A stretch of DNA of 56,925 nucleotides, counting the filler, from Squatina squatina (Eukaryota): assembly GCA_031763465.1 (NCBI GenBank). It is 3 parts of 3 records of this genome, joined end to end, with 100 filler letters (N's around TTAATTAATTAA, not from the genome) between each part and the next. Parts side by side here need not be neighbours in the genome. Positions count along the whole stretch, not along the records: positions 17,879 to 31,187 come from JARFOE010895700.1; 2 more parts are not named here. One strand, given 5' to 3'. The translations under genes were made by a program, and so were the position numbers. How positions within the stretch are numbered: position 1 is the first letter of the stretch; every line of letters begins with the position of its first letter. Below are positions 19,701 to 23,369 of this stretch, one piece after another. The notes under the pieces were generated by a model, which searched no databases, had not been told where the DNA came from, and saw only the letters and a program-made list of their open reading frames with translations.

Positions 19701-22700
19701 CAAGGGAACAGCAGGCGACCCATTCAGTCTCTCGAGCCAGTTTCATAGGAACAGGAGCAGGCTCGTTCAGCTGCTCATCTTGTTACATGCGAACAGTAGG
19801 AGGGCCATTCAGTGCTCGAGCCAGTTACATAGGAACAGTAGGAGGACCATTAAGTACTCGAGCTAGTTACATCGGAACAGTAGGAGGGCCATTCAGTTCT
19901 CGATCCTGTTATATGGGACCCGGAGGAGGTCATTCACTCCTCTCAAGTCTGTTGCATATGAACTGGAGGAGCTCCATTCATCTCCCTTGAGCTGGTATCA
20001 GAGGAAGACCATTCAGTACCTTGAGTCTGTTGTATAGCAACAGGAGGAGGCCCATTCACCGTTCTGGAGTCTGTGACTAAGGAACAGGAGGTGACCGATT
20101 TCCTCCCATCATGTCTTTTATATTAGAAAAGGAGGAGGCTCCTTCAGCCCCTTGAGGCTATTGGAGAGGAAAAGGATGAGGCCATTTCCACACTCTGGAG
20201 CCAGTTGCATAGTAACAGGACGATGTGCATTCAGCCCTTTGAATCTTTCACACAGGAAAAGGACGAAGCCCATTCAGCCACGCAAGCCTGTTACGTGGAT
20301 GATTGGAGGCACATGACCACCCTCGAGTCCATTATGTAGGAACAGGAGGAAGCCCAACCAGCCCCTTGAGTCTTAACTAGGAACAGGAGCAGTCCCGCTC
20401 AGCATCTCGATCCTGTTACATTTGGAAAACGAGGAAGCCCATTCAGATGTCCAGTCTGATACATAAGAACAGAAGGAGGCCCATTCAGCCCCTAGAATCT
20501 GTTACATTGGAACAGGAGGAGGCCCATTCAGTGTGTTGGGCGTGTTAAATAGGAATAGGAGGAGGCCCATTCAGCAGCTCAAGCCTGTTACATAGGAACA
20601 GGATGAGGCGAAACAGGACGAGGCCTATTCAGCCCCTTGAGTCTCTTACATAGGAACAGGAGAAGGCCTAATTCGCACTTTGAGCCTCTTACATAAGAAC
20701 AGGAGAAGACCCATTCAGTCTGTTAAATATGAACAGGAGGAAGCCTATTCAGTGCCTCATGTATGTTACACAGTAACAGGAAGAGGCCCATTCAGCTGCT
20801 CAAGCCTGTTACATAGAAGCTGGAGGAGGCCCATTGAACCACCCCTAGCCTGTTACAAAGGAACAGGAGGAGGCCACTCAGCACTTTGAGCCTCATATAT
20901 AAGAACTGCAGGGGGCCATTTAGCCCTGAGCATCTATTACATTGGGAACAGGAGGGGGCTGATTCAGTGCCACGAGCATGTTACATAGGAAAAGGAGGAG
21001 ACTCATTCAGCCCCTTCAGTCATATACAGGAACGGGGAGTCGCATTCACTGCTCTCGAGCCTGTTACATTAGGAACACGAGGAAGCCCATTCAATCTGAC
21101 ACATAAGAACAGGAGGAGGCCAATTCAGCCCCTAGAACCTGTTGTTTACGAAGAGTCGAAAGCCCATTCAGTACTCTTGAGCCTGTTATATAGGAACAGG
21201 ATGAGGCCATTCAGCCCCTCGAGCATGTTGTAAGGGAACTGAAGGAGGTCTCTGCAGCCCTAAGAGGCTGTTACACAGGACCAGGAGAAGACCATTCAGA
21301 CCCTCAACTCTGTTGCGTAGGAACAGGCGGAGGCCCAATCAGCTCCTTGAGGCTGTTACATTGGAACCGAAAGAGGCCAATACAGCTCTCTCGAGACTGA
21401 TACAAAGGAACAGGAGGAGATCCATACAGTTCTCTTGAGCCCATTCTTCCCGTCGAAACTGTTACATAGGAACAGTAGAAAGCCCATTCAGTGCACTCGA
21501 GCCTGTTACATAGGAACAGGAGGATGGCATTCAACCCTTTGAGCCTCTTATGTAGGAACAGGAATGGGCTATTCATCCCCTGGAGTGTGTTACATCGGAA
21601 CAGGAGAATGCCATTCAGCTGCTCGAGCCTGTTACAAAGGAACACGAGGAGGCTCATTTAGCCCTTTGAGCCTGTCAGATCGGAACAGGAGGAGGCTATT
21701 CATCCCCTTGAGCATGCTATATAGGAACAGGAGAATGCCATTCAGCTGCTCAAGCCTGTTACATAGGAACAGTAGCAACCCTATTTAGCACTCTCGTGCC
21801 TGTTGCATTGGAACAGGGGGAGGACCATTCTGCCCCTCGAGTCTCTTACACAGCAGCAGGAGGAGGCCCATTCAACCCTCTCTAACCTGTTCTACAGGAT
21901 CACAAGGAGATCCATTCAGACTCTTCAGTTTGATACATAAGAACAGGAGGAGGCCCAATCAGTGCCTCGAGTGTGTTACATAGGAACATGAGGAGGCCAT
22001 TCAGCTGCTCAAGCCTGTTACATAGGAACAGTATAAGACCCATTTAGCACTCTCGAGCCTTTTACATAGGAAGTGGATGAGCCCATTCAGCCCTTCGAAC
22101 CTGTTACATAGGAATAGGAGGAGGCCATTCAGCCCCTCGAGTCTGTTGCATTCTGAACAGGAGGAGGCCCATTCAGTGCCTCGAGCTTGCTAAATAGGAC
22201 CAGGAGGAGCCCCAGTCAACACCCTCTAACCTGTTACACAGGAACAGGAGGATGTCGTTCAGCCTTTTGAGCCTCTTACATAGGAAAAGGAGGAAGCCAT
22301 TTAGCTGCTGGAGTCTGTTGCATTAGGAACGGTAGGAGGCCCATTCAGTGTCTCAAGCCTGTAACATAGGGGCATGAGGAGGCCCATTTAACCCTCTCTA
22401 ACCTGTTACATCAGAACAGGAGGATGCCATTCAGCTCTTTGAGCATTTTACAGATGAACGGGAGGAGGCCAGTTCAGCCCCTTGAGTCTGTTCCATAGGG
22501 ACATGTGGAGGCCCATTCAGCACCACATGTCTGTGACGTAGGAACAGGAGGAGGCCACTTCAGCTGCTCAAGCGTGATACATTGCAACAGGAGGAGGCCC
22601 ATTCCCCCCGCCACCATCGAGCCTGTTGCAAAGGAACACGAGGAGGCTCATTCAACCCCTCGAGTCTGTTGCATAGAAAGCAGGGGAGGCCCATTTAACC

Positions 22701-23369
22701 CCATCTAACCTGTGACATAGGAACAGTAGCAACCCATTTAGCACTCTCGAGCCTCTTACATAAGAACAGCAGGAGACGCATTCAGCCCCTTAAGCCTGTT
22801 AAATCGGAACAGTGGAGGCAAATGACACCCCAAGCCTGTTACATAGGAACAGAAGGAGACCTATTCAGCGCTCTCGAGCCTGTTACAGAGGAACAAGTGG
22901 AGCTCATTCAACACCTTGAGTCAGAAACATAGGAACAGGAGAAGGCCCGTGTAGCCACTCAAGCCTGTTACTTAGGAGCAGGATGAGGCCATTCAGCACC
23001 TCGAGCCTGTTGCACAGCAACTGAAGGAGGCCTCTGCAGCCCCTAGAGCCTGTTACAGAGGACCAGGAGAAGGCCATTCACACCCTCGGCCTTGTTGCAC
23101 AGGAAATGAGGAGGTCCTTACAGCTCTCTCTCTCGAGCCTGTTGCATGGGAACATGAAGAAGCCAATTCAGCCCCTTGAGTCTGTTACATCGGGACAGGT
23201 GGAGGCCCATTCAGTGTCACATGTCTGTGACGTAGGAGCAGGAAGGTTTCCATTCAGCGCTCTCAAGCCTGTTACTTTGGAACAGGAGGAAGCCCATTGT
23301 GCCGCTCAAGCCTGTTACATATGAACAAGAGGAGGCCCATTCTGCCCCCTCGAGTCTGTTACAAAGGAA
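19701..23369. repeat. Tandem array of a ~43-bp unit (ACATAGGAACAGGAGGAGGCCCATTCAGCCCCTCGAGCCTGTT), roughly 80-85 diverged copies, derived from a CR1 3' terminus
   Basis: Continuous periodic repeat. The unit nearly matches LINE ends elsewhere in the window (43601-43638; reverse complement at 44042-44075). Copy number estimated as length divided by unit. Confidence 0.93.

Follow-up and report, generated by a model that had tools for sequence, protein, structure and literature searches.

The window analysed here is a stretch of 56,925 nucleotides from the genome of the shark Squatina squatina. The part of it between positions 17879 and 31187 (JARFOE010895700.1) contains a kilobase-scale tandem array, referred to as array A hereafter, and the following features lie in and around it (S3 is a subfamily label coined in the present analysis).

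18786 to 19700, no strand assigned: left flank, also present on about five other contigs at 91–99% identity; a segmental duplication carrying array A
19700 to 23370, minus strand: array A, 85 head-to-tail units of a LINE terminal hairpin plus one tail repeat
23371 to 24610, minus strand: 5′-truncated CR1-type LINE of subfamily S3, with broken reverse transcriptase (RT) fragments (RVT_1, E 6e-9)
24626 to 25097, plus strand: array B, about 11 units, inverted relative to array A, behind a short S3-like tail remnant
25098 to 25765, plus strand: second 5′-truncated CR1-type LINE, which cuts array B short only in the window copy

A preliminary description of this DNA had proposed a kilobase-scale tandem array of about 80–85 units, and both procedures used here agree with it: TRF gave 85.1 copies with a period of 43 at 19705–23369, and a wrap-around alignment gave 85 units and one partial unit between 19700 and 23360. 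The units are 42–43 nt long, a one-base insertion relative to the 42-nt consensus being frequent, and the 82 near-full units show a mean identity of 83% to this consensus. The divergence from the consensus outside CpG is 15%, and CpG transitions amount to 22–26% as compared with 8–12% at other sites; by this decay, array A is an old copy. It is also nearly star-like, in that 4 unit pairs share at least five variants, as against 0.4 expected. A higher-order repeat was looked for in array A and none was found: the best three-unit diagonal was 9, as compared with 8.5 when the order of the units was shuffled.

The identity of the unit was examined by profile matching and folding. In the window outside the arrays, the unit profile matched eight LINE ends in all, the best at 41.4 bits. 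The three LINE termini that had been claimed to resemble the unit were recovered (44038–44076, 41.4 bits; 43599–43637, 37.8 bits; 55179–55221, 15.6 bits), and no match at 12 bits or more appeared when the window outside the arrays was shuffled locally 20 times. An ordinary genomic LINE end folds into one stem-loop with an 8-bp closing stem, followed by the tail (z −2.3), and the array unit consensus has the same fold. The unit is therefore a terminal hairpin plus one tail repeat, read on the minus strand, and the earlier proposal that polymerisation involved the entire 3′ module of a CR1-type LINE, hairpin and tail together, stands. A sub-segment of an interspersed retroposon thus serves as the tandem unit and, as in a SINE-like passenger, the units carry the 3′ hairpin and tail of a partner LINE. 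The aged LINE copy in the window itself folded no better than shuffles. A further claim, that each unit junction bears a stem-loop, was borne out in part: the stem-loop is present but not at each junction, being exact at 8, with at most one mismatch at 29 and with at most two at 52 of about 84 junctions of array A. It is an alternative pairing of both arms of the in-unit hairpin, namely the LINE terminal stem-loop. We take the LINE to be a CR1, from its RT domain, hairpin and octamer tail. The RT domain (in the adjacent LINE), the terminal hairpin and the octamer tail were all found, and they are features of the CR1 clade according to the available part of PMC8665684.

The S3 LINE at 23371–24610 has its own terminal hairpin, different from the array unit, and a complete tail of two TTCTTATG repeats, and it joins array A within a unit; array A is therefore not the own end of this LINE copy repeated. 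Array B, which was absent from the preliminary description, is an inverted sister of array A at a distance of 1.3 kb and stands head to head with the S3 LINE. Twin priming was considered for the inversion across array A, the LINE and array B; the two arrays begin at different unit positions, behind separate tails. A paralogous contig (L304) matches the start of array B in register and then continues for about 80 units, so array B was shortened later. The paralogs of array A are in register for only about 8 units, after which they diverge in arrangement. The window copy is best explained as one whose expansion ended long ago and which afterwards underwent duplication, rearrangement and interruption by LINEs. 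Composites of an array and a LINE with target-site duplications were considered for L242 and array B and were ruled out, as the array of L304 continues past both boundaries. It was also observed that the arrays of L304, L243 and L284 and that ending at 25097 in the window run into a same-sense 5′-truncated LINE, each near unit positions 13–17.

Array A belongs to a family. The unit-to-unit junction, TTCCTRTGT followed by AACAGG, has 219 exact matches in the genome as a 28-nt query and 776 as a 17-nt query, while the reversed controls gave 0; one unit with one junction thus occurs at well over 100 places. A 301-nt piece of array A gave 1,337 genome candidates, 40 of which were scored. We distinguished 138 array pieces of at least 5 units (2,542 units), a number that includes paralogs and possibly fragments of single long arrays. 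They carry many different flanks, and identical unit boundaries recur at many dispersed loci, so that the array is not a single-locus satellite. At ordinary LINE ends, a second unit was found in 0 of 30 drawn from 1,065 pattern matches and in 0 of 30 drawn from 600, the two samples having two loci in common and one end being hidden by a gap. With regard to a subtelomeric preference, 20 of the 776 matches fall at 11 places in large scaffolds, several of them interstitial and distant from the scaffold ends, and the flanks are GC-rich (47% at 85 array loci, as compared with 42% at 60 single-end loci, the latter from large scaffolds only), in an assembly that is not at chromosome level. Short shark chromosomes are described as having more simple tandem repeats and a higher GC content (PMC10620051, in part). 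We regard the arrays as a real and apparently undescribed family of dispersed LINE-end minisatellites. In the open literature no description of this repeat was found, although subscription journals, Repbase, Dfam or supplements could hold one; the terms "tandem", "satellite" and "hairpin" are absent from the available part of PMC13343379, which treats vertebrate CR1-group elements. Three minor observations concern individual contigs. At 600–900 of L096, two arrays of the family lie tail to tail, one of them interrupted by a GA microsatellite. At 239–302 of L300, the hairpin-end motif occurs twice, 44 nt apart and with different following sequence, which may be a second junction type. Finally, L269 and L275 are single LINE ends with the hairpin partly deleted between short direct repeats. 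Exon-like sequences lie beside the arrays of L058, L057 and L308, which by eye we take to be PKC-like, TBC-like and TatD-like, respectively.

Many of the arrays adjoin a LINE 3′ end. Among 56 junctions, a set enriched for LINE bodies by the search query, the array continues in register from a LINE body at 34 by score and at 7 more by eye. The bodies upstream of the arrays are LINE 3′ ends; for very short ones, a tail-sharing SINE is possible. Array-bearing bodies are intermixed with single-ended copies in at least three subfamilies, the mean pairwise body identity being 0.64 among the former and 0.62 among the latter. A contrast was seen between the ages of hosts and units, as dated by neighbour-based consensuses: in 27 array hosts (of 29 rows, two single ends miscalled as arrays having been dropped), the body is 12.5% and the units are 6.6% diverged, the body being higher in 25 of the 27, though arrays were found by consensus similarity, which favours little-diverged units, and this bias in the age gap cannot be fully removed. 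In a control of 36 unselected single ends passed through the same pipeline, both body and hairpin are 11.5% diverged. This also holds from unit 4 onward, beyond the range of the query, where the body was older than the units in 10 of 10 cases, and among the arrays flanked on both sides, where it was older in 8 of 9. The window locus is an exception: the S3 LINE is 13.8% and array A is 14.8% diverged, about equal in age. The arrays also differ from terminal microsatellite tails, since the unit has 42–43 nt, is not found on most copies and is unlike the host in age and type.

The consensus of the unit is nearly constant, while the arrays themselves turn over. Tail column 39 aside, locus and global consensus are identical in 63 of 80 arrays; a locus consensus departs from the global one by a mean of 0.28 bases, as compared with 3.6 for single units. 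At columns free of search-pattern bias, the consensus is identical in 23 of 30 and 18 of 26 arrays. The per-array mean divergence ranges from about 1% to over 20%, and the tail column is A in older and G in younger arrays (rho 0.45). In the 30 longest arrays, the ratio of variant sharing within and between loci is 1.0–4.4, and younger arrays show scattered locus-specific variants, like minisatellites in turnover. Long shared variant runs occur only among the window-locus paralogs; other contigs share tracts of 2–5 units, which could be pieces of one locus. One array (L011) has two halves of unequal age, the older of which is more diverged and has a tract of 4–5 units in common with L091; L011/L091 and L016/L141 are candidate donor–recipient pairs. 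An origin of the unit divergence in RT errors was rejected in view of its spectrum, which is CpG-biased and roughly strand-symmetric.

The edges of the arrays provide further information. At column 27 the array base is present in 35 of 38 first units and at column 39 in 28 of 38, while single LINE ends have A there in 24 and 42 of 59, respectively; in the 3′ half, first units are array-type, not host-type. The 5′ half of the first unit is 10.3% diverged and the 3′ half of the last unit 12.6%, as compared with 8.1% in inner units (p = 0.06 and p = 0.014, respectively), and the inner halves of the edge units show no excess. Of 29 last units, 14 have the base usual in LINE tails, as against 6.7 expected from their own array. 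Since A27 occurs in only 8 of 66 last units, the host half persisted in some arrays only. Of 39 array 3′ ends, 30 fall within the LINE tail or the six bases that follow it (p = 6e-10), and in L087, L056 and L139 the array ends in the tail of another LINE subfamily. On the 5′ side, an end is visible in 26 arrays; by a hand tally, about 11 of these begin within a unit and lack a LINE body, where a rough estimate from short LINE remnants predicts roughly 11%. Ragged ends are not clearly commoner on the 5′ side (11 of 26) than on the 3′ side (9 of 39; p = 0.11). A discrete 42-nt RNA would fix the 5′ start of every array at unit position 1; this was rejected, for the starts are scattered, with 5 of 14 (hand-sorted) near position 1. 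The complete S3 tail enters mid-unit at five different junctions, namely window arrays A and B, L096, L305 and L308; in L308, no same-sense array lies upstream of this junction. No convincing target-site duplication was found in the 16 loci screened, several of which have their LINE 5′ ends off the contig, and two candidates fell once paralogs showed the array continuing. No empty allele and no donor–recipient pair with flanks was seen; L005 has one match in its own genome, and run X1 covers its LINE body at about 98% but not its unique flank.

We consider, with a probability of roughly one half, that the minisatellite enters LINE ends already in the genome through homology-directed copying, with local turnover afterwards, so that array A would be an old, decayed copy of a dispersed hairpin-plus-tail minisatellite whose family spread by DNA copying. 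The identity of the unit, its dispersal, the shared junction, the variety of hosts, the age gap, the local turnover and the decay are observed, and they are consistent with such copying into LINE hairpins followed by local expansion, as are the array edges and the GC-richer flanks. Slippage across the hairpin would have produced the junction, once or a few times. When a LINE hairpin breaks, repair from an array elsewhere would split the host hairpin and insert units; the hairpin-forming units would expand locally until mutations halt the expansion. Pairing would work best for donors close to the overall consensus of the LINE ends, and such selection would hold the consensus almost constant. 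The explanation implies no host function for the arrays. The donor may be DNA or RNA, and the evidence points both ways. For DNA speak the lack of a young LINE lineage tied to the arrays, the failure of any target-site duplication to survive checking, the short shared tracts and the precedent of squamate satellites, described below, whose units need not be RT recognition modules. Against it, neutral turnover alone leaves unexplained why arrays diverged by 2% and by 16% share a consensus, and the body-less starts exceed the expected share. The entry of the S3 tail into mid-unit (the window, L096, L305 and L308) and the equal ages at the window locus fit RT better; in addition, host halves are kept in only some arrays, and the empty allele and the donor–recipient pair are missing.

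The main competitor, possible but less probable than DNA copying, is that CR1 ORF2p copies array RNA, either as read-through or by repeated copying of the terminal 42 nt, the products being inserted at new sites or at matching LINE ends or arising as LINE-RNA chimeras, and that RT recognition keeps the unit constant. This is favoured by the composition of the unit, since a role of hairpin and tail in RT recognition has been hypothesised for avian CR1 (PMC8665684, in part), and by the consensus fixed across array ages, the 3′ ends in tail register, the body-less arrays with mid-unit 5′ starts, the five S3-tail junctions and the nearly star-like window array. It is strongest at the window locus, which falls in the class where an S3 tail runs into mid-unit. 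Nevertheless, the arrays show no link with any young LINE subfamily, 5′ raggedness gives no clear signal, and no tail variant offers alignment bases for repeated copying. A LINE subfamily whose TAAC tail would align such copying was likewise not supported, TAAC being 4 of 16 double variants. Because the units are younger than the bodies, the RT route also needs an extra step, insertion at existing homologous ends. In its extended form, of about the same probability, the arrays would be a promoter-less parasite, a polymerised recognition hairpin homing to LINE 3′ ends of any subfamily, with array RNA or telomerase-like repeated copying as the source, and hence a retroposed satellite held constant by RT recognition. 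The LINE-mobilised satellite suggested earlier is thus possible as an idea, but the target-site duplications that would mark it did not survive checking. The companion suggestion, reiterative template re-use during the host insertion, is not supported as a general origin, because the units are younger than the bodies and array-type from the first unit onward.

Independent local origins, in which each LINE copy slips across its own hairpin, aided by a chance AAC after the tail, and then expands, are improbable as the general route. Single ends followed by AAC do exist (15 of about 46 loci viewed), as do a locus with two host-type units (L231) and private fixed variants in a few arrays. However, the closeness of the locus consensuses to the global one, the array-type first units and the youth of the units relative to their hosts largely refute this route, by which the first junction may nevertheless have arisen. 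Because the locus and global consensuses are identical in 63 of 80 arrays, unequal crossover, which had been proposed, also fails in its plain form, from each local copy. Still less credible is one master LINE with a multi-unit tail whose retrotransposition left all the arrays: it accounts for the shared junction and the 5′-truncated arrays, but the bodies are polyphyletic and older than the units, and long variant runs are confined to the window-locus paralogs. As the general route, neither an expansion of every copy from its own end nor one array-tailed master is compatible with these results. An assembly concatemer, or chance, has almost nothing in its favour beyond the fragmentation of the assembly (1.15 million contigs); the units differ mutually and bear a strand-symmetric signature of CpG decay, unit-specific variants are common to paralogs, and contigs from a public run, which may be of the same sample, align across 4–6 units at about 88–89% identity.

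The closest described case, judging from the available part of PMC10702118, is that of sSat1–3, the SINE-derived satellites of squamates (Vassetzky et al. 2023). In both systems the units come from one part of a retroposon with constant boundaries at many loci, the end unit continues into the parent, a locus holds few to many units, the units are more alike than the parent copies, and locus-specific subvariants occur. The shark parent, however, is a LINE with an RT gene, and the shark arrays are therefore not sSat in the strict sense. Moreover, the shark unit is exactly the terminal hairpin plus tail of 42–43 nt, as compared with about 70–290 nt in sSat; several shark loci are interstitial; and the age of the host relative to the units and the chimeric first units are addressed here, unlike in the available part of that paper. 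Other repeats derived from transposable elements (TEs) include the mouse B1 and MaLR VNTRs, Alu minisatellites, a cetacean L1 3′ satellite and the CR1-containing HinfI and Cen repeats of chicken (PMC6947457, PMC9659126, both in part). Like the shark arrays, they were born from a segment of a retroelement, and slippage, gene conversion and unequal exchange have been proposed for them, as has LINE transduction for their dispersal; none of those listed in these parts is described as consisting of polymerised CR1 terminal hairpins that share one junction in several LINE subfamilies. At the end of CR1 itself, a hairpin and an octamer with a proposed role in RT recognition are described (PMC8665684, in part), and the TGTAA repeats of UnaL2 have been linked to template slippage in a source that also treats stringent 3′ recognition and the shark HE1/HER1 pair (PMC3747384, in part). 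The shark arrays share position and strand with such terminal repeats, and their unit includes one octamer-like tail repeat. What sets the shark unit apart is that it takes in the complete hairpin, does not occur on ordinary copies and is in most cases of more recent origin than its host.

The arrays offer a clean and datable case of a tandem repeat colonising its parent retroposon. With a fixed junction, diagnostic host bases and ages of 2–20%, they make the spread of TE-derived satellites with identical boundaries to many loci testable with long-read genomes. If the RT route is true, LINE 3′ recognition would be linked to the birth of satellites. In practice, the arrays coincide with assembly gaps and may serve as VNTR markers. 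Several other features were observed in the window. A 26-nt tandem repeat of 7.4 copies lies at the contig start (17879–18070), and a 20-nt tandem repeat with 40/60-nt periods at 27030–27197. Reading frames labelled actin-like by eye flank a gap at 5478–6972, and 9220–12355 is occupied by a broken LINE of a different type, which by eye looks RTE-like and contains EN-like and RT-like frames. Finally, the region at 30021–30200 contains a frame that we take to be Myb/SANT-like, possibly from a decayed Harbinger-type transposon.
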